From Verrucomicrobiota bacterium (GTDB lineage: Bacteria > Verrucomicrobiota > Verrucomicrobiia > Limisphaerales > AAA164-E04), in contig CP170459.1 in assembly GCA_047947115.1 (NCBI GenBank), positions 4,128,001 to 4,192,000 of the forward strand: a stretch of DNA of 64,000 nt, written 5' to 3'. Every line of letters begins with the position of its first letter. The first letter of the stretch is position 1. The notes below the pieces were generated by a model that saw only the letters and a program-made list of their open reading frames with translations, had not been told where the DNA came from and did no database searches. A program made the position numbers and the translations under genes. Shown in pieces: positions 19,781-63,849 of this stretch.

Positions 19781-21409
19781 ATGACAAAATCAAACACCCT
19801 CATAAAATTCGGAGGATTACTGATGGCGATGGCCACCGGTCACCTTGCAAGCGCCCAGGCGCTGGACCCTACAAAAACGCAAATGGCTCTTCCACTTCCC
19901 GAAGCACCTGTTATTGACGGTGTGTTGGATGATGGAGAGTGGATTTATGCAGGAGGCGCCGCCCAGAATTTCTGGCGTGTCAGTTTTGATGCAAATCAGG
20001 ACGACCTCTTTCGCGGTGGCGGCCCGGGTGATGGCAATCCTCTCGAACCCTTTGATGACACTGATTTGCAATACAATCTCTATGCAGGGATACACGGCAA
20101 TGATTTATACATCGCCGTGGAAGTCACCGACGACTGGATCAATACGGATGGCCCCGAGCCGGAATCCGAAAACGGACAAACCTGGACCGACGACAGTGTT
20201 GAAATATTCATTGACGGAGACAACAGCAATTTCGAAGAACGCAGTACCAACGGTGCGCCGGAAGTCATTGATACCGGGGGGCAATTCGTTATCACTGCCA
20301 ACAACGCCTATCGTCAGGCCGAGGCAGGAGATCCGGGTTATGGCCCCGCTGCCGCCTGGTATGCACGGACCGAATTGACGGACAATGGTTATGTGGCCGA
20401 ATTTCGAATTTCCCTGGATATCATCGGCAACCCCGAGCCCGGCAGCGCAATCGGGTTCACAGTCGGAGTCAATGATGACGACGAATTGGGTGATCCCGGC
20501 TCCGAACGTCAGATCCTTTGGGTAGGCACACCGCACACGGAATCCACCTACGGCAACCTGATCATCGGAGAACGCACCTACACCGCGCCCAAGACCTCGG
20601 CTCCGACAGTGGATGGCAATGTATCCGCCGACGAATATGCGGGGGCTGAGAAGATCGATCTGAACATGCACACCGGTTCCTATCATATCGGAGTCGGCAA
20701 CGACGAATGGGAGGACGGAGATCACAGTCTGCAAGCATGGGTGGTTCATGATGATGAAGCCGTTTATATCGGAATCATTGCCGTGGACGACATTATTTCC
20801 ACCGATTCGGCGGCAGCAGGCTCTGAAGATGGCCAAACCTGGATTGATGACAGTATCGAAATTTTCTTCGATGCCAATGACAGCAATGATCAAGGCAGAG
20901 ACCAGGCTTCCCTCTATGAAGGCCAGTATGTCATCACAGCCAATGGTGCACGGCGTGACAACGAAGCCAATAATCCAACATGGGGAGAAGACGCACACTG
21001 GTACGGTGCTGCCAAGGAAACATCGGACGGATATCAACTTGAGTTCAAAGTGACTAAAGAAGCACTGCTCGGAATACAGGATGGAGGGCGGATGGGTTTC
21101 AATATTGCCATGAATGATGATGACGGAGACGGTCGCAAATCCCAATTGAACTGGGCAGGCAACCCTCATCTGGAATTTTCGTATGGAGCCCTCATTCTTG
21201 GTCCTGCTTCTGAAGGCGGCAACCAAGGTGGCGGGGCTGCCAATGTGAGCATTTCCATTGCGGACAGTTCCATCACTTTGGAATGGGAAGGATCAGGATC
21301 GTTGGAAACGGCCGAGGTGGTTACCGGCCCCTGGAGCACGGTAGACGGAGCGGCCAGCGGCGTCAGCATTCCAGCAAACAACCAGCAGGCTTTCTATCGA
21401 GTTAGATAA
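19781..21409 (+). CDS. Secreted protein with tandem CBM9/DOMON-like sugar-binding domains and a C-terminal FYR domain
   Basis: Signal peptide; two repeats of P.IDG...LYIAV.V.DD...W.DDS.EIF.D...GF.....NDDD; ends QAFYRVR. Confidence 0.8.
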   Translation: MTKSNTLIKFGGLLMAMATGHLASAQALDPTKTQMALPLPEAPVIDGVLDDGEWIYAGGAAQNFWRVSFDANQDDLFRGGGPGDGNPLEPFDDTDLQYNLYAGIHGNDLYIAVEVTDDWINTDGPEPESENGQTWTDDSVEIFIDGDNSNFEERSTNGAPEVIDTGGQFVITANNAYRQAEAGDPGYGPAAAWYARTELTDNGYVAEFRISLDIIGNPEPGSAIGFTVGVNDDDELGDPGSERQILWVGTPHTESTYGNLIIGERTYTAPKTSAPTVDGNVSADEYAGAEKIDLNMHTGSYHIGVGNDEWEDGDHSLQAWVVHDDEAVYIGIIAVDDIISTDSAAAGSEDGQTWIDDSIEIFFDANDSNDQGRDQASLYEGQYVITANGARRDNEANNPTWGEDAHWYGAAKETSDGYQLEFKVTKEALLGIQDGGRMGFNIAMNDDDGDGRKSQLNWAGNPHLEFSYGALILGPASEGGNQGGGAANVSISIADSSITLEWEGSGSLETAEVVTGPWSTVDGAASGVSIPANNQQAFYRVR

Positions 21410-21436
21410 AAGCGAACAACATCTGCAACCAACGAC

Positions 21437-21473
21437 AAGGGGCGGGATTCACTCAATCAATCCCGCCCCTTTT
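21437..21473 (+). terminator. Intrinsic terminator
   Basis: AAGGGGCGGGATT...AATCCCGCCCCTT followed by a short T run. Confidence 0.8.
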
Positions 21474-21477
21474 GATT

Positions 21478-21489
21478 GCTGTCGACAAT
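21478..21489. promoter_or_regulatory. Candidate second GntR operator GCTGTCGACAAT
   Basis: TGTCGACA palindromic core resembling ATTGTTAACAAT; upstream of the ThuA gene. Confidence 0.45.
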
Positions 21490-21564
21490 CCAACCCCCAT
21501 GCTCGAGGAGATGTCACGCGGCAAATTGTTTGTCTTTCGCATCGTTTTGACTCAGACTTCTGCC

Positions 21565-22464
21565 ATGTTTCGCTTAATCCCTTGGATACTCTGCACGCTT
21601 GTCATCACGCAGGCTGAAATCAACGTCGTGATTTGGGACGAACAGCAGCCACGCCAGAAACAGGCTTACGAAAACTTTCTGGGCAACGCCATTGCTGACC
21701 ACCTGCGGCCCCTTCCTGGCATCTCAGTCAAAACCGTCACACTGGACAGCCCTGGTAAAGGCATCGGACCGGATGTGCTGAACTCATGTGATGTGCTTCT
21801 CTGGTGGGGGCATGTTCGACAAGCGGAGATTACCCCTGAAGATTGCAAGCCGATCATTGATCGCATCAGAGCAGGAAAAATGTCATTCATCCCACTGCAC
21901 TCAGCGCATTGGTCAACCCCCTTCATGGAAGCCATGAACGAACGCACCCGCATGGACGCAGCCAAACGTTATCCACGCACACAGGATTCACCTAATGTGG
22001 CCATTGAATTTGTCCCACCACCCGGGCGTGTCCCTCCAACTGCAGACTCGATGGTAACGCCCGCCTATCTGGCATTAAAGCGTGGTGGTGTAGCCACAAC
22101 CGTGCGGGTTGATCTTCCAAACTGTTGTTTTCCAGGTTGGCGTAACGACGGGGAACCCAGTTCTCTTGAATCACTGCTGCCTGATCATCCCATTGCCCAA
22201 GGACTCCCCAAATATTGGTCCATCTCCTCTACCGAAATGTACGCCGAACCCTTTCACGTTCCCGAGCCGGATCAGGTTGTTTTCAAAGAGACCTTTTCGA
22301 AGGGCGAATGGTTCCGAAGCGGCTGCGTGTGGGAACTGGGTAAAGGCAAAGTATTCTATTTCCGTCCGGGGCATGAAACATTCCCGATCTTCAAGGAAAA
22401 GCTTCCACTCAAAGTGATAGAGAATGCCGTTCGATGGCTGGCTACAGATTTGCAGAATCCCTGA
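21565..22464 (+). CDS. ThuA (trehalose utilisation, class I glutamine amidotransferase-like) domain protein
   Basis: VVIWDE, DVLLWWGH, LHSAHWS, EMYAEPFHVPEPD, GEWFRSG, FYFRPGHETFP. Confidence 0.88.
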   Translation: MFRLIPWILCTLVITQAEINVVIWDEQQPRQKQAYENFLGNAIADHLRPLPGISVKTVTLDSPGKGIGPDVLNSCDVLLWWGHVRQAEITPEDCKPIIDRIRAGKMSFIPLHSAHWSTPFMEAMNERTRMDAAKRYPRTQDSPNVAIEFVPPPGRVPPTADSMVTPAYLALKRGGVATTVRVDLPNCCFPGWRNDGEPSSLESLLPDHPIAQGLPKYWSISSTEMYAEPFHVPEPDQVVFKETFSKGEWFRSGCVWELGKGKVFYFRPGHETFPIFKEKLPLKVIENAVRWLATDLQNP

Positions 22465-22509
22465 AGCAAGTTGCATCCTATCACCAAACTTGTATGGTAT
22501 ATCACGAAC

Positions 22510-23823
22510 ATGGACTTCCCCTACATCGCCAAATATCATTCACTGAGTCGTCGCCACTTTTTGCGTGGAACGGGCGTCGCTCTTTCATTGCCGATGCTCG
22601 ACGCCATGCTACCGGCATTCGCTGCAACAAGCGAAGCCCCTTTGCCAGCCAAGCGATTTATCGGTGTCTGCAATAATCTCGGATTATTGCCCGATCGTTT
22701 TTTCCCATCCGAAGCCGGACCCAATTATCAGCTTTCTCCCTACCTGAATGAACTGGAAACTCACCGAAATGATTTTACGGTCTTAAGCGGTGTGTCACAC
22801 CCTGGGGTGGATGGAAGCCATTCCTCGGATATTTCATTCCTGACCGCCGCTCCTCACCCGGCCAGCGGTGGCTTTCGCAATTCCATTTCCCTGGATCAGT
22901 TCATCGCAGAAAAAGTGGGACACTTGACACGTTTTCCATCACTGACTCTTGGAGTCAATGCCAAGGAAGGTCGTCGTAGTCTCTCCTGGACGAATGCAGG
23001 CGTGCTTATTACCTGTGAAAACAAAGCTTCCGAAGTGTATCGAAAGCTTTTCTTACAAGGCTCAAAAGAAGAAATCGAGCAACAAATGCGCCGTCTGCAG
23101 TTGGGACAAAGCATTATGGACACCTTGGCGGAAGACTCAAAGCGCCTGTCCAAAAAGTTGAACGCTTCCGACAAGGACCGCCTGGATCAATATGTCACCG
23201 CCGTGCGCGAGGTGGAACGTCGCATGGACAAAGCCAGGGAATGGGAAAAGCTTCCCAAACCCACTGCGCCCGTCCCCATGCCGGAAGATCCTGATTCGAA
23301 GGCGGCCTATATGGAAAAAACCGCGTTGATGTATCAGATGGCATCTCTGGCCTTTCAAACCGACTCCACACGCAGCATCACCCTGTTGCTGGACAGTAAC
23401 AACTCGCCCACCATCAAAGTTGATGGTGAAAACATTACAGACGGTTATCACAACTTGTCCCATCACGGTAAAAACGAATCAAAACTCAAGCAATTGGAAG
23501 CCATTGACCGGGCTCATATGATGGAGTTGCGCACATTTTTGGATTCATTGAAATCAAGTCAGGACAATTCAGGATCGCTTTTGGACCAGACACTGGTCCT
23601 CTACGGAAGCAATTTCGGAGACGCAAACAAACACACAACCACCAACATGCCCATTGTAGTGGCTGGCGGACAACTTAGACATGGACAGCACCTGGCATTT
23701 GATCCAGCCAATAACCATCCACTCCCCAACCTGTTTGTCAGCATGCTCAACAGCATGGACATAGAAACGGAGCATTTTGCCTCCTCAACAGGTTCCATGA
23801 CAGGTTTGGAGAGTCTGAAATAG
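22510..23823 (+). CDS. DUF1552 domain protein with Tat signal
   Basis: LSRRHFLRGTGVALSLPMLDAM, ISLDQ, AFQTDSTR, YHNLSHH, LYGSN. Confidence 0.88.
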   Translation: MDFPYIAKYHSLSRRHFLRGTGVALSLPMLDAMLPAFAATSEAPLPAKRFIGVCNNLGLLPDRFFPSEAGPNYQLSPYLNELETHRNDFTVLSGVSHPGVDGSHSSDISFLTAAPHPASGGFRNSISLDQFIAEKVGHLTRFPSLTLGVNAKEGRRSLSWTNAGVLITCENKASEVYRKLFLQGSKEEIEQQMRRLQLGQSIMDTLAEDSKRLSKKLNASDKDRLDQYVTAVREVERRMDKAREWEKLPKPTAPVPMPEDPDSKAAYMEKTALMYQMASLAFQTDSTRSITLLLDSNNSPTIKVDGENITDGYHNLSHHGKNESKLKQLEAIDRAHMMELRTFLDSLKSSQDNSGSLLDQTLVLYGSNFGDANKHTTTNMPIVVAGGQLRHGQHLAFDPANNHPLPNLFVSMLNSMDIETEHFASSTGSMTGLESLK

Positions 23824-23902
23824 AAAAAATCAACTAATCAGCAGCCAAAATGCATCCCTGTGGTTGAAAAGCTCGAAGACACAGGCATAATCGCATCAAA
23901 TC

Positions 23903-26341: not shown

Positions 26342-26343
26342 TC

Positions 26344-27804: not shown

Positions 27805-27805
27805 C

Positions 27806-46107: not shown

Positions 46108-47670
46108 TCACTCACCCATTGTGACAGCGATGAAAAATACCTCATGCTCGTCAACGGCCAGATTACGCTGGATGATTCCACCATCCCCTGTCACTTCGTC
46201 AGAAATTTTAAGTGCCTTTATATCTGATCCCGTCATGAGTTGATAGTTCCTGCCTTCTTCGGATTGCCAGCTGACAGAAACTTCTCCTCTATCCCGACGC
46301 TCGATTTGCAGTGAGAACGGATTTGGTTTTACTACAGGAATGGGTGCTGCATTTAAATCCAGAATTCCCGCATGAACCGATCGAACAGGCGTTGAAAGTT
46401 CTCTGTCAACCAGCACGTCTTCGAAGACAATGACAAAGGTCCCATCTTCGCGCGCTGCAATTTCCGGATGAACCATACTGGCGGCTTGAGACGAAACCAC
46501 ATCGAACCATTCAACGTTGCCGGGCTCCAGTGTTTGATCCAGTGAGCCAACACGCAAACTGGCATTTTGCTTGGATGGGTCTCCATAAGCCACGACCAGA
46601 CGTCGCTCCCAAGTGGTGGTCGCGCTGACTTTCACCGCCCAATCGATGGGGAATCCGGGCAATACCCCCCAATTAACAACCTGGAAACCGTCCTTGGTAA
46701 TATATCGGGAACCCAGAACAGTCGAATAATCAGCATCATCACCACGCATTTGCCAAAACGGGAGCAAAATGAAATATCCCCTGCCGTCTACCATTTCAAT
46801 GCTTGGGGGAAGATAATCATCCGATTCCGCGACAGGCCTGGCAAGCTGCCTGCTGTAAGTTTTCAGGCGGTCTTCCGATGAAACCTCAGCCGTACTCATC
46901 GTCACGTAGGACTCCTTCGTCAGGTCCGGCAAATCAAGAAAGGACCGTTCCAGCCATCCCACGACAAAGGAGTCATCTTCATCCATAGCCAGATCCACCA
47001 TGGAATGTGTTTCAAATTCAGACCATGACTTCTTGTTCAACTTGATCGGTTCGCCGCGAGGGCTTAAGTCTTTTGAGAACCTCTGAGCCATCACGTTGGA
47101 TGGCCCGAAAGCCGATTCACTGTAAGCCCAGGCAATGACAAAGCCGCGATCCGTTGTCACCTCCACATCGAAATCCGCCAAATCAAGACCTCCCACAACA
47201 AAGTGGATTTGTTCCACATGCTCATGTTGCACAATCAACTGGCCGGACGAATCAAATCGACTGGCAAACAAACTAAACTCGTAGGACGTTGCACCCTCAC
47301 CGACTTCGGGTGCATACTCCATCCAGAAACAGGAAAAGTTCCCCTGATCATCCATTACCACTCTGGAAGATACATCGAGAGGAAGAGGTCGGTCGGGGGC
47401 GTTGATTTCAAGTGATGAAGACAAAGGCTGCCCATTGGAATCATAAAGCCGGGCTTTCCAAGGACGCCTTGGACCCTTCACGTCGCGGTCCTCGTCAGGT
47501 GGCAAGTAATCATACCAAGTCACCACATATGAACCTTTTTTGGAAAGAGCCAACTGTGGGCGAAATGCGTTATCGGCGACCAGACTATCTTTGATGACAA
47601 AATTATTCGACTGAGCATTTGCCTTCAAATGCCCTAATGAACACATCCATAAGATTAGAATGGTCCGCAT
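46108..47670 (-). CDS. Secreted beta-repeat protein with a C-terminal F[YF]x domain
   Basis: Signal-like N-terminus at 47670; repeats of MD..G.FVVxW...ARxF(D/S)..G; paralog of 48063..49544. Confidence 0.7.
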   Translation of the reverse strand: MRTILILWMCSLGHLKANAQSNNFVIKDSLVADNAFRPQLALSKKGSYVVTWYDYLPPDEDRDVKGPRRPWKARLYDSNGQPLSSSLEINAPDRPLPLDVSSRVVMDDQGNFSCFWMEYAPEVGEGATSYEFSLFASRFDSSGQLIVQHEHVEQIHFVVGGLDLADFDVEVTTDRGFVIAWAYSESAFGPSNVMAQRFSKDLSPRGEPIKLNKKSWSEFETHSMVDLAMDEDDSFVVGWLERSFLDLPDLTKESYVTMSTAEVSSEDRLKTYSRQLARPVAESDDYLPPSIEMVDGRGYFILLPFWQMRGDDADYSTVLGSRYITKDGFQVVNWGVLPGFPIDWAVKVSATTTWERRLVVAYGDPSKQNASLRVGSLDQTLEPGNVEWFDVVSSQAASMVHPEIAAREDGTFVIVFEDVLVDRELSTPVRSVHAGILDLNAAPIPVVKPNPFSLQIERRDRGEVSVSWQSEEGRNYQLMTGSDIKALKISDEVTGDGGIIQRNLAVDEHEVFFIAVTMGE

Positions 47671-48062
47671 CGGATGGATGGGACGTCTCCCAATTGGGGC
47701 AAAAAGCAATAATCGACAAATATGTGCCAAAGAGCAATGGCAAGTATCTTGGAAGAAGGGAGTACATTGCATGCAGTATGATCAGCATTATTCCTGCCAA
47801 AAGAAATGATTTCTCTTAAAAACTTTTTGCTTTATTCAGTTCAGCAAAAGGCCAATTAAACCGCCCGATAGCTTGCAAACCGCCACACCTGAACAACACC
47901 TTATCTACATAAACTTTTAACCTTCACTCACTAATTTGGTACTATTTATGCTGAAAAAACCACATGATCCCCTACATGAAAAGTAACTGCTTTTTACGCC
48001 TCATTCACTCGTTGCATTTGTTTGCGGGGTTTTTTAAACATCATGGCATTCCCAAACAACCA

Positions 48063-49544
48063 ATGCATCGAGCCGTAAAGCCATTATCATTGTTTGTCAT
48101 CTGCCTGATGATTATCAGCACGCAGATCCATGAAGCCCAGATACAACCATTCCAAGTGACCGATACCGGAGTGAGCAAGACGATTGCGGTTAGTCATACA
48201 GGCGAGTTCATGGTGACCTGGACAAGAGGCGTCCCAGGCGCAGGTAATCCGTTGCCCATCTACTCGCCCTTCAGCCAATACGGTCGCGTCTTCAACTCTG
48301 ATGGCACACCCAAGTCATCGGAATTCAAAATCAGCGACGACGGGACACATACGCTGGTAAAGACGGATGAACGAGGAAACTACACCTGTTTCTGGCCAAG
48401 CTCAGGCTTCTCTCGACGCATATTCATGAGACGATACGATGCCAATGGTGTGGCGAGAACCAGTGCAGAAAGCATCATCACCAGCGGTAACACGACAACG
48501 TTCGATGCAGACATGATGCCTGATGGCAGATTTGTGGTGGCCTGGAGTGAAAATGACGGAAGCATCTTTAACGGAAGCTCCATTGTTTATGCTCAAAAAT
48601 TTGACTCACGAGGTAGAAAGGAAGGCTCCGTCATACGAGTGACCCCTGAAGATAATGAATCACCGTCCATGGTGAGCGTCAGCATGGACGAAGAGGGTGG
48701 CTTTGCAATTGCCTGGCTGCTGCGCACATTCCCTCCTTTTCCAGCCATCGAGAAGCACATCGCTTTGAAAGTCGCAACCTTCGATGCCGATGGAAATGTT
48801 CTGACAACCCAGGTGGCCATGGAAGAGCGAATTGAAGGCATCCATGAGCATTTGCCTCCCGTGATCAAAAAGACATCCAAGGACGGTTGGATCGTGCTGA
48901 CCACCCACACTGAAAGATTGATTGGCCCGGAAGTTCTCGTTGCCAAAATTGAAGGAGCGTATCAGAAAACTGCGGACACCCCAATGCAACATCTATCCCT
49001 CCCTGTTTCCACCACTTATGGTGGGATCAATGGATTCAACCTAGCACGGACACAGGATGGGCGAATGGTGCTGAACGTCGCCGGGTTGAGCTCAGAACCT
49101 GATGTCCCCCATTATGCAATATTTGAGGACTCACTTCCTCTGCTGGCTGATTTCCACCCGATCCAGGAAGAATCCATACCTTCACTGAACCCCATGCTCA
49201 TCACATCGATTGCAGCCCACCCAGAAGGTACGTTCATCTATACAGCCACTTACTATCCACCAGGATTTCCTGATAATGCCTATTATGCGGTCAAGGCTGG
49301 GGTCATCAGGCCGCCGTCAGAAAACCAAAACACCGCTCCCACCCCTTTTCTCAACTGGAATTCCTCAGGCAAACTGGATTTGAATTTTGAAAGCGATGAA
49401 GGGAAAACCTACCAATTAGTGAGAGGTTCGCAGCTGGACTCCATGAAAGAATCCGAACTCATCGAAGGCACTGGGACGACCGTAACGCTTACCATTAGTC
49501 CGGAACAAAGTACTGAGTTCTTCTCAATCGTCCAAAAGGAATGA
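48063..49544 (+). CDS. Secreted beta-repeat protein with a C-terminal F[YF]x domain
   Basis: Signal-like N-terminus; repeats G.F.V.W...R.FD..G; paralog of 46108..47670. Confidence 0.7.
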   Translation: MHRAVKPLSLFVICLMIISTQIHEAQIQPFQVTDTGVSKTIAVSHTGEFMVTWTRGVPGAGNPLPIYSPFSQYGRVFNSDGTPKSSEFKISDDGTHTLVKTDERGNYTCFWPSSGFSRRIFMRRYDANGVARTSAESIITSGNTTTFDADMMPDGRFVVAWSENDGSIFNGSSIVYAQKFDSRGRKEGSVIRVTPEDNESPSMVSVSMDEEGGFAIAWLLRTFPPFPAIEKHIALKVATFDADGNVLTTQVAMEERIEGIHEHLPPVIKKTSKDGWIVLTTHTERLIGPEVLVAKIEGAYQKTADTPMQHLSLPVSTTYGGINGFNLARTQDGRMVLNVAGLSSEPDVPHYAIFEDSLPLLADFHPIQEESIPSLNPMLITSIAAHPEGTFIYTATYYPPGFPDNAYYAVKAGVIRPPSENQNTAPTPFLNWNSSGKLDLNFESDEGKTYQLVRGSQLDSMKESELIEGTGTTVTLTISPEQSTEFFSIVQKE

Positions 49545-50552: not shown

Positions 50553-52406
50553 CTATTCCAAAACAACTCGGAAAAACTTGTTGCTCGAATCGGCGGACTC
50601 TGAATGCGGGCTCGTTGCGCCTGCTACGTCACTCCATGAACTTGGATCAGACAGATCAACGGTGGATTGCAGTTTGACACCCCCAGACTCCCAGCTTACC
50701 GAGACGGTTCCATTCAAGTTTTGAGCCGAGATGAAAACGCTCAGATCCGCCGGCAACTCGGGAGGAGTGGGCGCTTTGGCCTGCGTCAAACCTTTCCCAT
50801 CCAATCCGGCCTCGTAAATCCCGACAATTTCCTCCGAAGCAAGTGCCCGGGCCCAGAAGCCGAAATCATCCATCCTCCCTGCCCAGAACCCCGGGTCCGC
50901 CTCCAATGGCAGGTTAAAACCATCCGGATCCATCAAAGCCCCAATGGAAATAAACTCATTTCGCCCTCCGTTCACTCCATCGGTCGTATCCAACGAAGCC
51001 ACCAAATGACCATTCAAATACAATCGAGCCTGCCCGCCGGATTGTAATTCGGGATCGAAATCTTCCAAGACGTAGGCCACATGCTGCCAGGAGCGCGTGG
51101 GAAACATTTCGGAATGGCTGATAACGGATACATCACCGTTCTTGGTGCGTGCGCTCCCCTCCAGATGTTCTCCGTCAGGCGTCAGGGCCATTCTGAATTG
51201 TCTTGGGTTGGTCCCTTCGGCTCCGTGCACAGCAATCACGGCTCCATCCAGCAAAGTGTCCGCCCAAACCCAGGCTGCAACTGTGATGCTGTCCGGAGAC
51301 GGGGTTGGATAGCCGGGAACGACTACCCACTGTTCATCAGCCGGACCACCAAATGCCAGTGCCCCGCCAACTTGTCCTTTTACCCATTGGGTGTTTCCTG
51401 AAAAATTGACCAGTTCGCCAACACCGCCATCATATTCAAAATTGTCCGGTACGGGAGCCGACTGACTGGCTGTGGTTCCAGAGGTTTCATCGAACTTCCA
51501 ATGCCCGATCAAATCTTCACTCACATCAAATGCGGGCAAACTCGACCGATCACCGGGGTCGCTTCCCTTGGCCACTTCAAAACCGTCCCCGGATCCGTCT
51601 CGATCCGTGTCAATCTTATTCGGATTGGTGCCCGTGTCGTTTGAGCTGATGAATTTTCCTGAATTGGATTCCACCGAATCACCAAGTACGTCATGATCAG
51701 AATCAACGTTCAATGGGTTGGTTCCACGGTCGTCTGCACTGCGCCAGACGCCTGTTCCGGATTCGACAAGATCGGACAGTCCATCCCCGTCCGTATCGGG
51801 ATTTACCGGATCCGTTTTGCGTTCAAACTCAGCCAGATTGCTCACCCCATCCTCATCGGCGTCACCGTCGGCGTCGTCGGCATCTGGGTTCAGTCCGTTT
51901 GCTTCCTCAAAAAAGTCGGGCATTCCGTCCCCATCCCTGTCGGACAGCTCCGCCTGTTTGGGTTCCAGAACGATGCGATCATATATGTGCTCGATATCAC
52001 TTCCGGCCTGGCAACTGACAAAAATGTGCCATTCCGTATCGTCCCCAAAGACTTCATCGAATGAAGTCCCGGCATCCGCCCATTTACCGGAATTGGAAAA
52101 TGTTGTCTCGACAAAATCCATATCCATCACCCCTGAAATCTCATAGGACCACCCCTCGGCATCTGCGGCAATTTTCACGATGCAACCATCGGTGAAGGAT
52201 TCCAGATCCAGGTCTCCATCGTCAAAAAAGTGATCCGAAGCCCCTCCTCCGTTGCGGTCTCCGGCAACCAGGCCAAATCCGTTGGCACTGGCCGTTCTCG
52301 ATTCCTGACCGAAGAACGTCAGTCCAAAATTATTGGCAGCACGATAAAAAGCTCCATTGTTGCCCCCCGCACCCATGAACAAGCCATTCGCAGAAGGTCT
52401 GATCAT
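50553..52406 (-). CDS. LamG-like jellyroll protein with DxDxDG Ca-binding repeats and a C-terminal FFR domain; apparently N-terminally truncated
   Basis: DRDGDGMPD/DTDGDGLSD repeats, GHWKFDE, WQHVA, LYLNG, GRMDDFGFWARAL; no signal peptide; in-frame stop at 52440-52442. Confidence 0.75.
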   Translation of the reverse strand: MIRPSANGLFMGAGGNNGAFYRAANNFGLTFFGQESRTASANGFGLVAGDRNGGGASDHFFDDGDLDLESFTDGCIVKIAADAEGWSYEISGVMDMDFVETTFSNSGKWADAGTSFDEVFGDDTEWHIFVSCQAGSDIEHIYDRIVLEPKQAELSDRDGDGMPDFFEEANGLNPDADDADGDADEDGVSNLAEFERKTDPVNPDTDGDGLSDLVESGTGVWRSADDRGTNPLNVDSDHDVLGDSVESNSGKFISSNDTGTNPNKIDTDRDGSGDGFEVAKGSDPGDRSSLPAFDVSEDLIGHWKFDETSGTTASQSAPVPDNFEYDGGVGELVNFSGNTQWVKGQVGGALAFGGPADEQWVVVPGYPTPSPDSITVAAWVWADTLLDGAVIAVHGAEGTNPRQFRMALTPDGEHLEGSARTKNGDVSVISHSEMFPTRSWQHVAYVLEDFDPELQSGGQARLYLNGHLVASLDTTDGVNGGRNEFISIGALMDPDGFNLPLEADPGFWAGRMDDFGFWARALASEEIVGIYEAGLDGKGLTQAKAPTPPELPADLSVFISAQNLNGTVSVSWESGGVKLQSTVDLSDPSSWSDVAGATSPHSESADSSNKFFRVVLE

Positions 52407-52601
52407 GTCAAGAAACTGGGATGTTAAACGCCCGCAAATTCAAAAATAGCCTCAATGCCCTGCCCCTGGAGAAAAGGATGCTTTGCTGGCCAGACCGCCA
52501 TTTTGATTCGCTTTTTGATTCAGCAGAACCAATTGACCGTCCCGCACTTCAAATTCACCTGATCTCGCTCAAGCACATTGCGATCAATCGAAAAAGATTA
52601 C

Positions 52602-54812: not shown

Positions 54813-54816
54813 ATAG

Positions 54817-55761: not shown

Positions 55762-56556
55762 ATGAGGACTCATGATTCCTATCGAAAGGGCTCCGTGCGC
55801 CGTATCGGAGCATTCACACTGATTGAATTGCTGGTGGTCATCGCCATCATTGCCATTCTTGCAGGCATGCTGCTGCCAGCACTGAGCAAAGCCAAAATGA
55901 AAGCCAAAGGCATCTCCTGCCTGAGCAACCTGAAACAAATGCAGCTCTGCTGGATCATGTATGCCACGGACAATGATGGAAACCTGATCTTAAATCACCT
56001 GGGGACACGTGACTCCTGGATCGGCGGCAATGTTTCATCCTCACCAGGCTGGACAAATCGCTTGGACATCACTGAAGGCGCACTTTATGCCTACAACTCC
56101 TCCGAAGAAATCTACAAATGCCCCTCGGATATTGCATTCAAATCCGGAACACGCAATGTGATCCGTGTGCGAAGTTTTTCCATGAGCGGCCGCATGAACG
56201 GTAATGCCGACTGGGTTTACCCAAACCTTAAAACATGGACAAAAGAATCCTCCATTGTCACACCGGGACCGTCCGGAGCTTTTGTTTTTGTAGACGAGGA
56301 CAAGGATAGCATTGATGACGGCTTCTTTGCGGTGCGTGACCCATTTGGCCCGAATGTCGGCCATTGGCAAAATGCACCTTCCAGTCGGCACGGTAACGGT
56401 GGCAACCTTTCCTTCGCCGATGGCCATGTGGAAAACTGGCGTTGGGTAGAGAATACAGCCACTGCCGTAACCGGACTCGACACCCGCACCTTCGCCGGCG
56501 ACCGGGACCTTGAGAAATTCCGCCAGGCAACCCACGAGCGGCGTGGAGACCAATAA
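55762..56556 (+). CDS. Prepilin-type N-terminal cleavage/methylation protein with H-X9-DG motif
   Basis: [48 protein letters not shown]. Confidence 0.92.
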
Positions 56557-56581
56557 CTCTTTCCTCTAACAGGATGATCAT

Positions 56582-56614
56582 AAGGCAGCCATTGTTTCAA
56601 TGGCTGCCTTTTTT
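56582..56614 (+). terminator. Intrinsic terminator
   Basis: AAGGCAGCCATTG-ttt-CAATGGCTGCCTT + TTTT. Confidence 0.85.
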
Positions 56615-56777
56615 AATTCAAGGCAACTAACGCAAAAAAGGTCACGGCATGACGTCAGGACCGCTGAATGATACCGCCCTGTAGCTTCCTGAAATTTGAA
56701 CTCGCTTTTCTGTCTCCATGTTGAACAATGTGTCTTTCCTAATTATTGCAATAAACAAGCAGACAATTGATCGAACA

Positions 56778-58088
56778 ATGAATATTCGAACCGTTTTATT
56801 AAGCGCATGCGCCCTCGGACTGGGCTGCTTTCAAGCCATTCAGGCAGGCGAACTCAAGGTTCCCCCCACCGGATTCACCGCCCTATTCAACGGCAAAGAT
56901 CTGAGCGGTTGGCACGGTATGGGACACTTCGACCCCCGCAAGTTGTGGGCCATGAGCGACGAAGAACGCAAAGCCAAGCGCGAAGCTGATCTCAAAGACG
57001 CCAAGGCACACTGGACCGTGGAAAACGGTGAACTCGTCAATGACGGTCACGGTGTTTACCTCACCACCGACAAAGACTACGGCAACATGGAGTTTCTGAT
57101 TGATTACAAGACTGTGGCCCAAGCCGACAGCGGTATCTATCTGCGCGGGAATCCTCAGGTGCAAATCTGGGATTACACAAAAGAAGGCGGCAAATGGAAC
57201 ATCGACGCCGACAAAGGCTCAGGCGGTCTCTGGAACAACAGTGCCGGCGCGCCGGGTAAAAACCCAATGGTCCTCGCCGACAGACCTTTTGGGGAATGGA
57301 ACTCATTCCGCATCATTCAGATCAAAGACTACACCACGGTTTACTTGAACGATCAGCTCGTGGTCGACCACGCCAAGATGGAAAATTTCTGGGATCGATC
57401 CAAACCGCTCTGGGACAAAGGTCCGATCCAATTGCAAACCCACGGCGGCGAAATACGCTGGCGCAACATTTTCGTTCGCGAAATTCCAGACAGTGAAGTG
57501 GAACAAATGCTCGCCGAACCCGGATTCAAACCCATCTTCAACGGCAAAAATCTCGACGGCTGGGCCGGTCCTGTTGAGAACTATCAGGTCCAGGACGGAG
57601 CTATCGTCTGTAAACCGAATAATGGCGGCACGATCTACTATCATCAGAATCTGACCGATTTTGTGGTCCGCCTTGAGTTCAAGGTTCCCCCCGGCGGCAA
57701 CAATGGATTGGCCATTCGCTACCCCGGACAAGGTGACACTGCCTACAGTGGCATGTGCGAACTGCAGGTCCTGGACAACACCGCTGAAAAATACGCCAAA
57801 CTCGACGCCCGCCAATACCATGGTTCCGCCTACGGCATGGTGGCTGCCAAACGTGGTGCGCAGAAGCCTGTTGGAGAATGGAACGAACAGGAAGTGACCG
57901 TCCAAGGATCCAAAATCAAGGTCGTCCTGAACGGCGAAACCATCCTGGATTGCGACTTGCGTGATGTGAATGAATACATGGGCGGACGCCCTCACGCTGG
58001 CAAAGATCGCTATGAAGGCTTCTTCGGATTTGCCGGTCACGGCGATCCCGTCGCCTTCCGCAACATCCGCATCAAAGCCCTGCGATAA
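56778..58088 (+). CDS. Tandem DUF1080 (3-keto-glycoside hydrolase-like) secreted protein
   Basis: Two domains, each with FNGK(D/N)L.GW...GEWN...(W/F)RNI; signal peptide. Confidence 0.9.
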   Translation: MNIRTVLLSACALGLGCFQAIQAGELKVPPTGFTALFNGKDLSGWHGMGHFDPRKLWAMSDEERKAKREADLKDAKAHWTVENGELVNDGHGVYLTTDKDYGNMEFLIDYKTVAQADSGIYLRGNPQVQIWDYTKEGGKWNIDADKGSGGLWNNSAGAPGKNPMVLADRPFGEWNSFRIIQIKDYTTVYLNDQLVVDHAKMENFWDRSKPLWDKGPIQLQTHGGEIRWRNIFVREIPDSEVEQMLAEPGFKPIFNGKNLDGWAGPVENYQVQDGAIVCKPNNGGTIYYHQNLTDFVVRLEFKVPPGGNNGLAIRYPGQGDTAYSGMCELQVLDNTAEKYAKLDARQYHGSAYGMVAAKRGAQKPVGEWNEQEVTVQGSKIKVVLNGETILDCDLRDVNEYMGGRPHAGKDRYEGFFGFAGHGDPVAFRNIRIKALR

Positions 58089-58107
58089 TCAAGACACCCT
58101 TTAAATC

Positions 58108-58147
58108 AAACGCCCCGGAAGTCAGGTTGACTCCGGGGCGTTTTTTT
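58108..58147 (+). terminator. Intrinsic terminator
   Basis: AAACGCCCCGGA..GTCA/TGAC.TCCGGGGCG + T7. Confidence 0.85.
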
Positions 58148-58148
58148 A

Positions 58149-58393
58149 TCGCAGATTAACGCAGTGACTTCGAAATACACATTCTACTTTAGTTGGCTAT
58201 AACGTTTGCCAAAAGTAATTTCATAAAAACCTCTGCGTCACTGCGTCTCTAGCGTAGCGGGCGTGAGACTAAGAAGCATCAGCGAGCCCTTATACGCAAA
58301 CACTTTTGACAATCAGTATATCAATCCTCCAGTTGTAAAATCAAACCTACTGTCCAGCTTAAACTCCAGTACATCCTCTGCGTTAATCTGCGA
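58149..58393. repeat. 16-bp perfect inverted repeat pair enclosing MITE copy B
   Basis: TCGCAGATTAACGCAG (58149-58164) / CTGCGTTAATCTGCGA (58378-58393). Confidence 0.7.
58198..58320. mobile_element. 123-bp MITE-like repeat, copy B
   Basis: TATAACGTTTGCCAAAAGT...ACTTTTGACAATCAGTATA imperfect TIRs; colinear with 14344..14466. Confidence 0.75.
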
Positions 58394-58417
58394 AATCTCG
58401 AAGATCCCGCGACTGCG

Positions 58418-59931
58418 CATGCGCGTCAGGATAAAGCCAGGAGGTTTTGTTCATAGTTTTGACGAGATCGTTTGTCATATTTGCATTGGTATCTCATTTG
58501 TATAGGGATAGCATCGCTGACTTGTACATTCCACGCTTCAAAACACAGAGCCAAAAAGTAATCTCCCAGTAGAGCAGCCACTTTCAACATGCTCAAATGC
58601 GCCGCGTTGCAAGTCTGCCCCGGGGCAAGCCAGTCACGCTCTATCAAGTTTGTAAGAACGGTAATAAAAATGAGTCGTGCACAAACCACTATCCGGAGTT
58701 GCTCTGCAGAACCGTCAGGAACCTCGGTGATACGAAAATGGCTTTTCCATGCCTTAAAAATGGTTTCTATCCGCCAGCGCAAACCGTAGATCTTTGCCAC
58801 TTCTTTTGCTGTGCATTCGTTCTGGGGAACATTGGTTGTGAATATCGCCCAACCAAGCAACTCCAACCTTTGGGCATTGGGCTTTCGCCTTTTATCACGA
58901 TTGCTCTTGGCTTTGCGTCGCCGTTCTGCCGCGATCTCATCGGGAAGTTTGATGGCCACCAATCGCACGGGTAACTGCTTATCTGAGAGCAAAACATCAA
59001 AGTCCAAATTTCCTAATCGTTTCAGTTTTTTGAGTAAATCGATTTTTTCTCCTGTGGCTGGGTCCCTCACTTCGATATCCAATCGGATTCGACTCAAATA
59101 ATAGGCTCCAGCGTTTGCTATCTGTTGGAATGATTCTATCACGAAATAGCCCAAGTCACGGAGTATTAAGTCCCCCTTACGTATGACTTTCAAAATATCA
59201 TAAGTTGCGGTTTGGTCGTTACGTCTAAATCCACTTATCCCGAAGTAGAGGAATTGTTGATTTTGTATATCCTGAATGGCTTGTATTTTCAGCGATGCAA
59301 TTTTGGAACCACTTTGGTTAGCCGAACCGGGAAAAGCAGCCGCCAGTTTCGAATTTACTTTGATGGTCGTGCTATCATGAACAAGGATTCGTGGAAATCG
59401 ATTGAACTTGTTTGGGACGTTGCGGCCATTGTCTTTGGATTTGGCGCTTAATACTAGCGCCAGGATGCATTGAATATAATTCACAGCGCCCTGGTTCATT
59501 CGTTCCCACAATGACTGTTTGGCAATAGTATTATTGCTCAAAATTCCCAACAAAGTCGCCCATCGACTCAAACTTGCGGTGCCTTGGCAAACCAATAGAA
59601 TAGTCGCTTGTAGAAAAAATTCGGGCATTATTTTTCGCGGAGTTCGCAGGACAAAGCCGGTGGCGCGAGCAAGTGTCTGGAAATCGAAATCAGCGAACCA
59701 ACCGGTTAATGTTTGGGCACATCGGTGCCATTCATGAGGCAGGGAAACCCCTTGTGAATCTGGGAGTAAAGTCAAACATTTGGGTTGAGGTCTTGTTGTG
59801 TGTTGAAGATCTGAAGATGATATTGTCTGACAAGGATTTGTTGGAGAGTCATTCGGAAAAGTAGAAAGCAAACTGTACATAAAAGTACAGCTTTATCGTT
59901 AAAAATAATCATTTTTATCCTGACGCGCATG
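58418..59931 (-). mobile_element. Complete IS4-family insertion sequence (1514 bp)
   Basis: 18-bp TIRs CATGCGCGTCAGGATAAA / TTTATCCTGACGCGCATG; 10-bp direct repeat CGCGACTGCG at 58408-58417 and 59932-59941. Confidence 0.93.
58426..59880 (-). CDS. IS4 family DDE transposase
   Basis: LVHDST (D), LRDLGYF (D), YGLRWRIETIFKAWKS (YREK signature); stop codon lies inside the TIR; start uncertain. Confidence 0.93.
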   Translation of the reverse strand: MYSLLSTFPNDSPTNPCQTISSSDLQHTTRPQPKCLTLLPDSQGVSLPHEWHRCAQTLTGWFADFDFQTLARATGFVLRTPRKIMPEFFLQATILLVCQGTASLSRWATLLGILSNNTIAKQSLWERMNQGAVNYIQCILALVLSAKSKDNGRNVPNKFNRFPRILVHDSTTIKVNSKLAAAFPGSANQSGSKIASLKIQAIQDIQNQQFLYFGISGFRRNDQTATYDILKVIRKGDLILRDLGYFVIESFQQIANAGAYYLSRIRLDIEVRDPATGEKIDLLKKLKRLGNLDFDVLLSDKQLPVRLVAIKLPDEIAAERRRKAKSNRDKRRKPNAQRLELLGWAIFTTNVPQNECTAKEVAKIYGLRWRIETIFKAWKSHFRITEVPDGSAEQLRIVVCARLIFITVLTNLIERDWLAPGQTCNAAHLSMLKVAALLGDYFLALCFEAWNVQVSDAIPIQMRYQCKYDKRSRQNYEQNLLALS

Positions 59932-59961
59932 CGCGACTGCGGTGATGCGGTTCCAAAAAAC

Positions 59962-61281
59962 TTACAAACTCCACCCCTCGCGATACTCACGCTTGATGTA
60001 AGCATTGGCTTCAGGAACGTTGGTGACACGCAGATTCTTGCTGTCCCATTCAATTTTCTTTCCCGCCCGAATGGCCACATTACCCAGCAACACCACCTCC
60101 GAAAACGGTCCTGAACGTTTGAAGTTGGAAAGCGGCTGGTCCGGGTTGTTGTTCCGAATCGCTTCCTGCCACTCCTCATCCTCATTCTTGACGCGGGGTA
60201 TGGATTTGGGAATATGCGTCACTTCCGCCATCACGCCGTTGGCCTTGATCAGCCAATTGGTGTTGCCTCGATTGAAATACAGCTTCCCTTTGCTACCCAC
60301 CAACACCGCGCCGTATTTGGAAATATCTTCGCCGTCGACCACTTCAGCGGGCGGGTAATGTTGCTCACCATTCCTTTGGCCATCGTACCAAACAAATTTA
60401 ACAGGGGGTTTCTGGCCTCGTTTTGGAAATTGATAGGTCACAATGGATGATGTGGGCGGAGATTCCAGAGTCATGCCCTCCTGCTCTGCCTGCACGGTAT
60501 CCGGAGCGCCAAGTTCGAGCGCCCAGTAGGCCATGTCCATGATATGACAGGCCATGTCGCCCAAAGCGCCCGTTCCAAAGTCCCAGTAACCTCTCCATTT
60601 AAACGGAGCGTACTCCGGATGATACGGCCGCCATGGAGCAGGCCCAAGGAACAAATCCCAATCCAGGGTATCCGGCACTTTGTGATCACCGGTGGGACGA
60701 TTCACTCCTTGAGGCCATACCGGACGATTGGTCCACATGTGCGCTTCGGTCACATCACCAATAATGCCACCCTGTATTAACTCTACTGCTCGTCGAATAG
60801 GCTCCCCTGCATGCGCCTGATTGCCCATTTGCGTGACCACCCCATATTCCTCTGCCACCTGGGTCATGACACGGGCTTCGTAAACGGAATGGGTGAGCGG
60901 TTTCTGGCAGTAACAATGTTTCCCCATCTTCATCGCCATGACGGCTGCCACCGCATGGGTATGATCCGGAGTGCTAACGGTCACGGCATCGATCCCCTTG
61001 TGTCTTTCAAGCATCACCCTGAAATCTTTGTAGCGTTTTGCAGTAGGAAAATTCTTGAACGTTTCAGCAGCACGCACGTCATCCACATCGCAAAGGGCCA
61101 CAATATCCGCCCCGGCATCAGCGTTGTTCATGATTTCACCGCGTCCCTTGCCGCCCACGCCGATCCCCGCCAGAGCGATACGGTCATTGGCACCGAAAAC
61201 CCGGCTTGGAAAAAAGTTGAAAGCGAACGCGGTCGCTGTGGATGCACCGACAAACTGTCTGCGAGTATAATGTTTTTTCAT
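59962..61281 (-). CDS. Tat-exported Gfo/Idh/MocA family oxidoreductase
   Basis: TRRQFV, IGVGGKG, STPDHTH, YCQKPLTH, GALGDMACH. Confidence 0.92.
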   Translation of the reverse strand: MKKHYTRRQFVGASTATAFAFNFFPSRVFGANDRIALAGIGVGGKGRGEIMNNADAGADIVALCDVDDVRAAETFKNFPTAKRYKDFRVMLERHKGIDAVTVSTPDHTHAVAAVMAMKMGKHCYCQKPLTHSVYEARVMTQVAEEYGVVTQMGNQAHAGEPIRRAVELIQGGIIGDVTEAHMWTNRPVWPQGVNRPTGDHKVPDTLDWDLFLGPAPWRPYHPEYAPFKWRGYWDFGTGALGDMACHIMDMAYWALELGAPDTVQAEQEGMTLESPPTSSIVTYQFPKRGQKPPVKFVWYDGQRNGEQHYPPAEVVDGEDISKYGAVLVGSKGKLYFNRGNTNWLIKANGVMAEVTHIPKSIPRVKNEDEEWQEAIRNNNPDQPLSNFKRSGPFSEVVLLGNVAIRAGKKIEWDSKNLRVTNVPEANAYIKREYREGWSL

Positions 61282-61408
61282 AGATAATAATGTTGTTCAG
61301 TCGCCTTTGGTGGAATGGATTGATCCTCTTACGAGGATTCAGAACGGGCAAGAAAATTAAACCTCGTTGCAAACCTGGAAAGATGCCGTTAAGTTCCAAA
61401 CCTGATTT

Positions 61409-62335
61409 ATGGAAAATGTTGTCATCATTGGAACCGGATGCGCGGGATTGACCGCCGCCATTTACACTGCACGCGCCAACCTGAACCCCTTGGTCCTGAC
61501 CGGCACCATGCCCGGCGGACTGCTGACGACCACCAGCATCGTGGAGAATTTCCCAGGATTCCCTGAGGGTGTGGATGGGTTTGAGCTCATGCAACATCTA
61601 CAGAAACAAGCCGAACGCTTCGGTGCACGCGTCCAGTTCGCAACCGTTGAATCAGCTGATCTTACGGGCGAACACCCCAAATTGGTGGTGGACGGCAAGG
61701 AATTGGAAACAAAAACCCTGATCATCGCCACCGGCGCGGGTCACCGCCATCTCGGACTCGATAACGAAAAGAAACTCGAAAACAAAGGCGTCACCTACTG
61801 CGCCACCTGCGACGGCGCCCTCCCCATGTTCCGGGACAAGCCCCTCGTCGTAGTGGGAGGGGGAGATTCAGCATGTGAAGAAGCCACTTATCTGACCCGA
61901 TTTGCCTCCAAAGTTTACCTGGTCCACCGCCGCGATGAACTGCGCGCCAGCAAAATCATGGCCGATCGCGCAGTGAACCACGAGAAGATTGAAATGGTCT
62001 GGGATTCCGTGGTCAGCGAAATCCACGGTGTGGAAGAAGACACCGTCACCGGCGTTCAACTCAAAAACACAAAGACCGGTGAGGAGAAACGACTGGACTG
62101 TGCAGGCGTCTTCATTGCCATCGGTCATGTTCCCAACACCCAAATCTTCAAAGGACAAGTCGACATGGACGAAGCCGGCTACGTCACCCGCACCGAAGGC
62201 AGCAAAACATCCGCCAAAGGAGTCTTCGTTGCTGGAGACTGTGCGGACAAAGTTTATCGCCAAGCCATCACCGCCGCCGGCATGGGCTGCATGGCCGCCA
62301 TTGACGCCGAACGCTACCTCGGCGAACAAGATTGA
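61409..62335 (+). CDS. trxB: Thioredoxin-disulfide reductase
   Basis: [47 protein letters not shown]. Confidence 0.96.
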
Positions 62336-62353
62336 CACGAATGCATTCCAACA

Positions 62354-62392
62354 CCACGAATAATGGGAGCCCCCCCTAACCATTATTCGTGG
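62354..62392. repeat. 13-bp perfect inverted repeat after trxB (possible terminator or REP-like hairpin)
   Basis: CCACGAATAATGG-13 nt-CCATTATTCGTGG. Confidence 0.6.
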
Positions 62393-62413
62393 CTAGCGAC
62401 TTTCACCTGAGAA

Positions 62414-62467
62414 ACCATCTCATTCGCAATGAGATGGTCTGGGGTTCGACTCCCCATGGCTCCACCA
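62414..62467 (+). pseudogene. 3' half of tRNA-Ala(CGC); probable integrase attachment site
   Basis: Anticodon arm TCTCA-TTCGCAA-TGAGA, T arm TGGGG-TTCGACT-CCCCA, acceptor 3' strand TGGCTCC-A-CCA; no matching 5' acceptor strand or D arm upstream. Confidence 0.8.
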
Positions 62468-62718
62468 AAACCTCCCGTTTTTCGCCCCTTTATCCCACTT
62501 TTTAGCAGATTGTTAGCTGTGTTTAAGGTAACTGATTAGGCTCCCTACTGGAATCTGCAACGCCAAGCAATTCAGTGAAGTTCCAGGCAAGGAAACCAAA
62601 TAAATGCCAAATTTTCAGGACCTAGATGCTCGGAAAACATCGCGGTAATTAAAATGATCAGCAATAAGTGAATCATTAAAGCCCTCAAGTCCATGTAACG
62701 ACATCACTCATCTTCAAT

Positions 62719-63849
62719 ATGAACAAAACCGAGAAAACCAAATGGTCACGTATGGGGTATGGCTTTTTCGCTCTCACATTTCACTTCTGCGTGTTCTGCA
62801 CGTCAGCCCATTCGCTGGACACATGGCAAGTTCGGCACTCCGGTGAAAACGGACTCACCGGTGTTACTTTTGGTTCCGATTTGTTTGTGGCTGTTGGGGG
62901 GAACGGGACTATTCTGACATCAACAAATGGTGAGATTTGGGAATCACAAGATTCAGGGACCAGTGTGGCTCTCAACGATGTCGCATATGGTAACGATACA
63001 TTTGTTGCAGTAGGGGCCAACGGGTTGGTATTGACATCGCCAGATGGAAGCAATTGGGGGGCCAAAGCATCAGGGAGCACTGCCAAATTACAGTCTGTTG
63101 CCTTTGAGAATGGTCTTTTTGTTGCAGTTGGCGAATCCCTTACATTACTGACATCGATAGATGGCCATGCATGGACGATTCAAAAACTCGATGCCCCTTT
63201 TATTCCATGGTTCATAGCTCACGGCGCAGGTTTGTTTTTAATTGAAAGCACCCGAGGCAAAGTTCTCGTTTCTATAGACGGCGCCAATTGGCTTGAGCAA
63301 AAAACGGGTTCTGACACGGGTCTTTACAGGGCTGGCTTTGGCGGAGGCCGGTTTGTCGCGATTGACACCAACACCCGTACGTTTCTCTCTGCTGACGGGA
63401 TCAATTGGCTGGAAGGTGGCACGACAAACCTGGGACGACATGGCGGGATTGCCTATGGAAATGGCCATTTTGTCGCCGGAGGCGGTGGTCTTGAGTATTC
63501 GCAAAATGGAATTGACTGGACCTTCAGTCCTTCAAGCTATGTTAGAGCTATCAAAGATGTGGCGTTTGGTGACGGGACTTTCGTAGCGGTTGGTTCGGGA
63601 GAAACAATCATGCAATCGCCCCCTGTTGTCTGGCTTCAAAGTATAGATCAGGGAATTTTGGACATTTACGGTCCGAGCGGAATCTCATACAGCATTGAGG
63701 CTCGAAATTCTCTGACAACTGATAGTAAATGGAGCAACTTGATGAACCTAACGGCCACTAACCTTCCACACCGCTGGGTAGACCCGGAAAGATTGCAGCA
63801 TTCAAACCGCTTTTATCGCGTGACAACTCGAGAGCAGCCAAGACCCTAA
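62719..63849 (+). CDS. Secreted BNR/Asp-box-like repeat (beta-propeller) protein with a C-terminal FYR domain
   Basis: Repeats L..V.(F/Y)G...FVAVG..G.ILTS.DG..W; signal peptide; ends RFYRVTTREQPRP. Confidence 0.82.
   Translation: MNKTEKTKWSRMGYGFFALTFHFCVFCTSAHSLDTWQVRHSGENGLTGVTFGSDLFVAVGGNGTILTSTNGEIWESQDSGTSVALNDVAYGNDTFVAVGANGLVLTSPDGSNWGAKASGSTAKLQSVAFENGLFVAVGESLTLLTSIDGHAWTIQKLDAPFIPWFIAHGAGLFLIESTRGKVLVSIDGANWLEQKTGSDTGLYRAGFGGGRFVAIDTNTRTFLSADGINWLEGGTTNLGRHGGIAYGNGHFVAGGGGLEYSQNGIDWTFSPSSYVRAIKDVAFGDGTFVAVGSGETIMQSPPVVWLQSIDQGILDIYGPSGISYSIEARNSLTTDSKWSNLMNLTATNLPHRWVDPERLQHSNRFYRVTTREQPRP

Follow-up and report, generated by a model that had tools for sequence, protein, structure and literature searches.

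Five open reading frames (ORFs) in the window, the 64,000-nucleotide stretch of a Verrucomicrobiota genome that we analyzed, end in a similar beta-rich domain, hereafter the module. The proteins are named by the lower coordinate of each ORF (Table 1). A sequence-only reading of this DNA had described them as five unrelated proteins sharing a candidate sorting signal, and all five ORFs and the tail motifs that it quoted were found in place. However, two of the proteins, 46108 and 47964, share 26% identity across 348 aa and are paralogs, so the five tails represent four unrelated passengers rather than five. The repeat passenger of 46108 had no match in Pfam, and the real start of this ORF probably lies further downstream. 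The 50553 ORF has no signal peptide, is preceded immediately by in-frame stops, and is apparently 5′-truncated. A scan of the window against Rfam returned no match.

Table 1. Module-bearing ORFs and their modules in the window, with held-out HMM scores
Feature	Coordinates	Strand	Held-out HMM
19781: 542-aa protein, signal-peptide-like N-terminus, two CBM9-like domains, Gly-rich linker, terminal module	19781..21409	+	
Module of 19781, short subtype, residues 484-542	21230..21406	+	62.2 bits, E 4e-17
46108: 554-aa ORF, repeat passenger, terminal module, paralog of 47964	46108..47772	-	
Module of 46108, long subtype, degenerate, residues ~474-552	46117..46353	-	25.3 bits, E 2e-5
47964: 526-aa ORF, terminal module, paralog of 46108	47964..49544	+	
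Module of 47964, long subtype, residues ~450-526	49311..49541	+	18.4 bits, E 3e-3
50553: 617-aa ORF, TSP3-like repeats, LamG domain, terminal module	50553..52406	-	
Module of 50553, short subtype, residues 556-615	50562..50741	-	46.7 bits, E 3e-12
62719: 376-aa protein, signal-peptide-like N-terminus, beta-propeller-like repeats, terminal module	62719..63849	+	
Module of 62719, long subtype, residues ~301-373	63619..63837	+	29.3 bits, E 1e-6

Using HMMs built with the window proteins excluded and 200 shuffles per tail as the control, we found that the common tail proposed for the five proteins was significant on every one, at 18.4-62.2 bits against a best shuffle score of ≤8.8 bits over all five. 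Each of these scores comes from the HMM of the tail's own subtype. The lowest-scoring module, that of 47964, stood against shuffles of ≤6.3 bits. The short-subtype HMM was blind to the three long tails (46108, 47964, and 62719), the long-subtype HMM detected all five, 19781 weakly (E 0.04), and the two profiles were mutually alignable (hhalign P 97.3, E 2e-11). The modules form a single family of 60-90-residue domains with three linked subtypes. The tails are all-beta and, as had been described, free of a transmembrane helix; a predicted helix anywhere after residue 80 occurred in 6 of 128 carriers.

In this genome, ~135 proteins carry the module (128 in the first count), and the family comprises 32,648 clusters (50% identity) at E ≤ 0.001, a figure that takes in some FN3 and CBM32 cross-hits. 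When 45 tails were compared with Pfam and NCBIfam, nothing came near a curated cut-off. No choice-of-anchor family matched 45 carriers, sequence searches of the PDB returned CBM32 and FN3 matches alone, all weak, and a literature search, largely outside subscription journals, found no publication that defines the family. This is a very large family, and neither Pfam nor NCBIfam has a model for it. We also considered Akkermansia-like genomes to be module-free and rejected this as an artifact of profile sensitivity; the third-subtype profile found 1-6 module copies in 4 of 11 such genomes.

The module ended within 10 residues of the C-terminus in 113 of the 128 carriers, usually with 2-9 residues between the last motif and the protein end. 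Its expected C-terminal location therefore prevails but is not strict: the module directly followed the signal peptide in seven carriers, occupied other positions in eight, and was present in seven tandem copies in one carrier of this genome. Passengers of extracellular type included CBM9, LamG, S8 peptidase, Calx-beta, PKD, GH18, and GH33, and within this genome the module was found on 5 of 160 large haem-motif proteins and 0 of 37 sulfatase-like proteins. By a crude signal-peptide test, 72 of 112 carriers were positive vs. 728 of 1960 background proteins (37%), with 4 of 112 in a mid-protein control. In the 600-1000 aa class, the same crude test showed no enrichment, with 18/34 carriers vs. 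179/349 background proteins.

Both structure models contained six strands, and the predicted fold is a fibronectin-III-like sandwich that lacks the last strand; FN3 (PF00041) has seven strands, A-G, and in the models the G strand is missing. FN3 domains took the top ranks in structure comparison (Z 6.9-8.1, rmsd 2.0-2.8), a range that the tool flags as possibly reflecting a common arrangement. In several FN3 domains, the model aligned with the first ~75 of 90-98 residues and stopped ~20 residues before the FN3 end. Foldseek with the single domain returned nothing at E ≤ 0.001, and PF00041 matched none of the 45 tails.

A pair of proteins from the gut bacterium Akkermansia muciniphila bears on function. 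In the part of PMC13524802 accessible to us, the sulfatase Amuc0953 is SPI-bearing, extracellular, and absent from the medium, and its translocation mechanism is called unknown, whereas the published location of its paralog Amuc0451 is intracellular, in the periplasm. Three Amuc0953 orthologs matched a long-type model built from sequences of this genome only (E 7e-4 to 6e-3; profile P 96.2), and the published reverse primer for Amuc_0953 encodes the end LRLKVTR. Protein L143 matches PDB 9s8x (2465 bits), a structure from which the C-terminal domain of Amuc0953 is absent. By these HMM and profile matches and by the primer-encoded end, the terminal domain of Amuc0953 is a distant member of the same family. 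By contrast, the accessible part of PMC13524802 treats this tail as a T9SS-tail-like feature of a single protein and names no family or machine. In the Amuc0451-like protein, PA14 is the last domain, and no module match was obtained. Amuc0953 further differs from Amuc0451 in its N-terminal beta-helix and BACON domain, and the localization support amounts to one protein pair.

The module is also linked to secretin and pilin operons. Within this order, an Amuc_1098-type secretin operon was followed by a gene block in 12/12 informative loci, the first gene of which carried the module in 10/12, with the loci being related by kinship rather than independent and one family supplying 6 of the 12. In 6/7 loci of the order, the gene directly after a pilin cluster encodes a giant S8 protease bearing 1-9 modules. 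In this genome, the operon of PilM, PilN/O-like, Amuc_1099-like, and secretin genes is conserved, and a carrier lies directly downstream of two of the eight secretins (P about 0.02). Secretin, PilM, pilins, and assembly genes are all present, the ATPase and platform genes being recognized from sequence rather than by library scan. The operon resembles that of the MUL2/Amuc_1098-1102 type IV pilus-like system and is followed across this order by module genes; the portions of PMC4960237 and PMC13174399 available to us describe a pilus for attachment and mucin uptake and name no substrate or export signal. Beyond the order, the synteny was seen in 1 of 20 secretin loci and 0 of 4 pilin loci. Secretin is near-universal in the phylum (75 of 80 genomes), and its co-occurrence with the module therefore discriminates little. 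Family f20 had neither in 3/3 genomes, four genomes (G042, G054, G075, and G138) had secretin and no module, and G234 had four module matches and a sole secretin that is frameshifted, which may be an assembly fault. G026 was considered as a joint loss of module and machine and rejected, as secretin is present; the contig breaks off within the first gene after it, at what seems to be the beginning of a module. Cross-matches to TSP3-like repeats made the Amuc_1099 family model a poor marker.

Because a distant relative of the module terminates the surface-reported Amuc0953, we consider it likely that the module marks Sec-exported proteins for outer-membrane passage and helps to retain them at the surface. 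The machine that reads it is possibly the Amuc_1098-type secretin. The reading that we favor, a folded export-and-docking tag read by this pilus/type II-like machine, is tentative, with chances a little short of even. The export or anchoring role put forward from sequence has thus gained partial support from the Amuc0953/Amuc0451 localization pair, from a tail swap in orthologs, and from the linkage to secretin and pilin operons. Carriers would cross the inner membrane by Sec and then fold in the periplasm. The missing G strand would leave an unpaired edge bearing a conserved aromatic-aromatic-Arg strand, and this open edge would take up a strand from a surface partner or from a component of the machine. 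The carrier would then leave through the secretin and remain attached, uncleaved. If it is the folded domain that is recognized, the tolerance of N-terminal and tandem copies would be accounted for. Held more loosely is the broader possibility that this G-strand-less FN3 is a portable folded label for the pilus/type II-like secretin machine of Verrucomicrobiota, available to any protein through fusion at either end, and directs as much as 3% of the proteome to the surface.

If the module is an export tag, the surface proteome could be read from sequence in a major soil, freshwater, marine, and gut phylum. The broader possibility, if true, would also supply a discrete, transplantable substrate signal for a class of machine whose known signals are diffuse, as well as the route, so far missing, by which Akkermansia mucin enzymes reach the surface. 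In Akkermansia, for which there are transposon mutants, an export tag would make two questions approachable by simple experiments: how the surface sulfatase Amuc0953 crosses the outer membrane, and whether a portable domain of a discrete kind can be read by a secretin machine. On a probiotic species, selected enzymes could be displayed by means of a working tag.

The foremost alternative, though on balance unlikely, is that the module acts purely as a non-covalent surface anchor, dockerin- or S-layer-binding-like, whose partner is a polymer at the surface, a protein of the outer membrane, or another module, while export depends on other signals. Tandem arrays, which in other genomes reach ~ten copies with linkers of 0-20 residues, are more in keeping with a binding module than with a signal. 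An anchor also fits the copies immediately following the signal peptide, the several short ORFs (126-155 aa) that consist of little besides the module, the absence of Amuc0953 activity from the medium (PMC13524802, accessible part), and the replacement of the module in orthologs from two genomes by a larger, unrelated tail of ~300 aa. However, an anchor gives no account of the passage of Amuc0953 and other SPI proteins through the outer membrane, offers no reason to expect the linkage to secretin and pilin operons, and is at odds with the single module copy in most carriers.

It is improbable that the module is an export signal for some further translocon, a T9SS analogue other than the secretin machine. 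The tail of PorZ (5m11 residues 686-762) shares the fold class of the module model (Z 5.6, rmsd 3.2 over 70), the distribution by lineage is mostly many-or-none, PMC13524802, in the part accessible to us, puts forward a comparable system, and G234 has modules without an intact secretin. Still, SprA and the T9SS tail were found in 0/5 genomes, in a search that covered these two components and was equally silent in control genomes, and a search with no genome-wide profile behind it yielded no candidate gene. The only C25 peptidase of this genome was set aside as a sortase, being itself a carrier and located in a mobile region with integrase and transposase genes around it; with this one C25 protein found, no conserved sortase was identified in the single genome. 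The T9SS C-terminal domain is present as a single copy and is strictly C-terminal. Like the module, its type A form (TIGR04183 Por_Secre_tail) is shared by numerous unrelated Sec-exported proteins within a single phylum. The T9SS analogy drawn earlier therefore stands for a small terminal beta-sandwich of the same fold class, but not for the N-terminal and tandem copies or the missing last strand: the module is predicted to be one strand shorter, has no sequence match to the type A domain, and shows no sign of a sortase or cleavage. The T9SS tail models in Pfam and NCBIfam (TIGR04183 and related) matched 0/45 tails and 0/5 window proteins, and the module is not a T9SS signal by membership.

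Similarly improbable is that the module plays no part in sorting and is just an FN3-derived spacer or an accessory domain for sugar binding, of an ordinary kind, that underwent expansion in one phylum. This would fit the FN3-like fold, the weak cross-matches to CBM32/F5-8 domains (E 1.5e-4) and FN3 repeat proteins, and the N-terminal, C-terminal, and tandem placement typical of binding modules, but a spacer would not be expected last in 113/128 proteins, the passengers extend beyond glycosidases to proteases, a sulfatase, and kinase-like proteins, the CBM32 match is limited to the middle strands, and module presence or absence in the Amuc pair agrees with localization.

Two other systems invite comparison. 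A precedent for the favored reading comes from PelI/Pel3, whose Pel3 Fn3 (PDB 4u49) compares with the module model at Z 7.3: a loop of the Fn3 acts there as a determinant of type II secretion, although in PelI the Fn3 signal is insufficient by itself; the PelI signal is a composite of loops in one enzyme family, not a portable domain like the module (PMC7949064). PEP-CTERM/exosortase tails and other sorting tails with a membrane anchor resemble the module in being C-terminal, many-to-one, and found in the same phylum, but they have a transmembrane helix and a basic cluster, and the module has neither. By pattern, this genome holds only five PEP-CTERM-like tails, vs. the ~135 module proteins.

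Iterated HMMs run over all 28,429 six-frame ORFs of the source genome recovered short and long subtypes of the tail module, together 134 domains in 128 proteins (E < 0.01). The best reversed-ORF decoys reached only E 1.6-2.1 across the subtype searches. Profile alignment joined the two subtypes (P 97.3) and linked a third (P 97.1), giving 135 carrier proteins, 130 of them within an approximate gene set of 4,318; further, more divergent tails were visible below threshold. Among the 128 carriers, the module was single and C-terminal in 112, formed a seven-copy array that reaches the C-terminus in one, and lay directly after the signal peptide in 7 and elsewhere in 8. By a crude hydrophobic-run test, 72 of 112 carriers of at least 300 aa had a signal-like segment, vs. 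4/112 mid-protein controls and 728/1960 other membrane-free proteins, but carriers of 600-1000 aa were not enriched. In motif-based sets from the same genome, the module was rare on large haem-motif proteins (5/160) and found on 0/37 sulfatase-like proteins.

Checked on the window sequence, the five ORFs (named by start coordinate) and their tails were present where first reported, and the tails are real relatives: in a held-out test, each outscored all 200 of its own shuffles on its own-subtype model. Their passengers, described earlier as unrelated, include one paralogous pair, 46108 and 47964 (26% identity over 348 aa). These two genes are divergently oriented and their modules degenerate; by eye, their repeats look similar to the gene that opens the secretin-linked block described below, with no significant BLAST match to it at E 1e-8. 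ORF 50553 has no signal peptide, and it looks shortened at its 5' end, its start apparently lost, because in-frame stops lie directly upstream. One pilin-like gene also falls within the window.

None of 45 module tails reached a Pfam/NCBIfam cut-off, and only unnamed Atlas clusters matched, mostly from Verrucomicrobiota where phylum was recorded. The long profile scored 32,648 clusters (threshold E ≤ 0.001). The 150 best-scoring ones, which include FN3 and CBM32 cross-matches, were multi-copy proteins with the last copy terminal in 113/149. It also matched 29 of 30 relatives (18-139 copies each) and, in a lineage-patchy distribution, at least 139 of the 301 genomes compared within the phylum, a lower bound because the third subtype adds further genomes. 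No paper defining the family appeared among those listed by literature searches; the domain of one member is noted in print.

AlphaFold2 predicted six strands for a single module (pLDDT 88) and six in each copy of a tandem pair (pLDDT 92). FN3 structural alignments (Z 6.9-8.1, middling values that say nothing on function; rmsd 2.0-2.8) span only the first ~75 of 90-98 FN3 residues (e.g., 3mpc 3-77 of 96; 3teu 1-75 of 98). Since they stop there, we read the modelled module as FN3 strands A-F with the G strand missing. The T9SS tail of PorZ aligns likewise (Z 5.6). Searches for SprA and the T9SS tail found no match in 5 genomes, where control searches were equally silent. The proposed T9SS analogy survives as a similar way of working in outline, but not as membership. 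For type II secretion, an Fn3 loop of PelI is described as a determinant that is not sufficient alone (PMC7949064).

The source genome has about eight secretin genes. One closes an operon of PilM, PilN/O-like, Amuc_1099-like and secretin genes, followed by four genes, three of which end in the module; three of the four have no informative Pfam match, and the secretin itself contains long Gly-rich loops plus an additional helical region at its N-terminus. Its counterpart Amuc_1098 is an outer-membrane secretin described as abundant (PMC4960237), and the MUL2 locus is reported to be conserved and pilus-like (PMC13174399; 10.64898/2025.12.30.696933). From the 26 matching genomes of the order we retrieved 15; three contigs stop inside the secretin, and the block follows in all 12 remaining loci, with the module on its first gene in 10/12 and on its third in 9 of 11 complete copies. 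Outside the order this linkage fades (1/20 secretin loci). The secretin was present in 75/80 genomes examined; family f20 has neither secretin nor module, and four f17 genomes have the secretin but lack the module. Small genome G234 has modules and a frameshifted secretin, its only secretin locus found, split over three frames by either pseudogenization or sequencing error. In G029 and G028, orthologs carry an unrelated, uncatalogued ~300-aa C-terminal domain in the module's place, or none; this domain has no Pfam match and no copy in the source genome.

A giant S8 protease that carries modules in tandem directly follows the pilin cluster in the source genome and in 6/7 order-level loci, the seventh stopping at a contig edge. 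PilY1 occupies this position in type IV pilus operons. Outside the order the linkage was found in 0/4 loci; all four proteases there end in the module, and one sits 6 kb from PilM. A pattern search found 73 pilin-like N-termini in the source genome.

We tentatively favor a route in which a carrier would cross the inner membrane by Sec, fold, be recognized through the module's open edge by a secretin-type machine, and then remain at the cell surface; we infer every step after Sec export, recognition and surface retention included. A role purely as an anchor is less likely than this route, and an unidentified translocon and a generic accessory domain are each improbable.

An Akkermansia muciniphila sulfatase pair bears on localization. 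L143, the Amuc0953 match, aligns with PDB 9s8x over residues 44-1303 (2465 bits), and 9s8a, which is Amuc0451 per the supplement of PMC13524802, covers only 521-1213. LRLKVTR, the sequence of the module's final strand, is encoded by the reverse primer published for Amuc_0953. Three Amuc0953 orthologs match the long model built from the source genome alone (E 7e-4 to 6e-3). Nine tails of this kind align to the long profile (P 96.2) and not to the short (P 1.2). Amuc0451-like L160 has no match to the module models and ends in HGKESR, as hand-read from the Amuc_0451 primer. As described in PMC13524802, with which the preprint agrees, Amuc0953 has an SPI signal, is the source of extracellular activity and is absent from the medium; intracellular activity comes from Amuc0451. 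This comparison covers one enzyme pair whose members differ in other domains too. The authors of PMC13524802 call the translocation mechanism unknown and report that Amuc0953's predicted last domain, unresolved in the crystal, resembles a T9SS tail. In one genus, 4 of 11 genomes have third-subtype carriers (1-6 each), among them GH18, GH33 and the sulfatase L143.

A TSP3-like acidic motif often precedes the module (16/128 carriers vs. 24/2411 other proteins, several of the 24 having unrecognized modules), and the Amuc_1099 family model holds a similar motif. One C25 peptidase gene, sitting among integrase and transposase genes, ends in the short-subtype module; its catalytic part is exactly repeated internally, through either a real duplication or an assembly artefact.

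Features of the window, source genome (G000) and compared loci
Feature	Coordinates	Description
19781	window, from 19781	two CBM9-like domains
46108 and 47964	window 46108-49544	paralogous passengers, no library match
50553	window, from 50553	TSP3-like repeats and LamG
In-frame stops by 50553	window 52406-52600	
62719	window, from 62719	propeller-like repeats
Pilin-like gene	window 55762-56556	
C25 peptidase gene	G000:C1:14793-20900	
S8 protease (L042)	G000:C1:476355-494032	3021 aa; N-terminal hydrophobic segment, seven tandem modules; after six pilin-like genes
Block after Amuc_1098-type secretin (L041)	G000:C1:5785517-5802505	four genes
Split secretin (L097)	G234:C6:70720-74010	
~300-aa-domain orthologs	L107:7704-11771; L108:6358-10176 and 12485-14998
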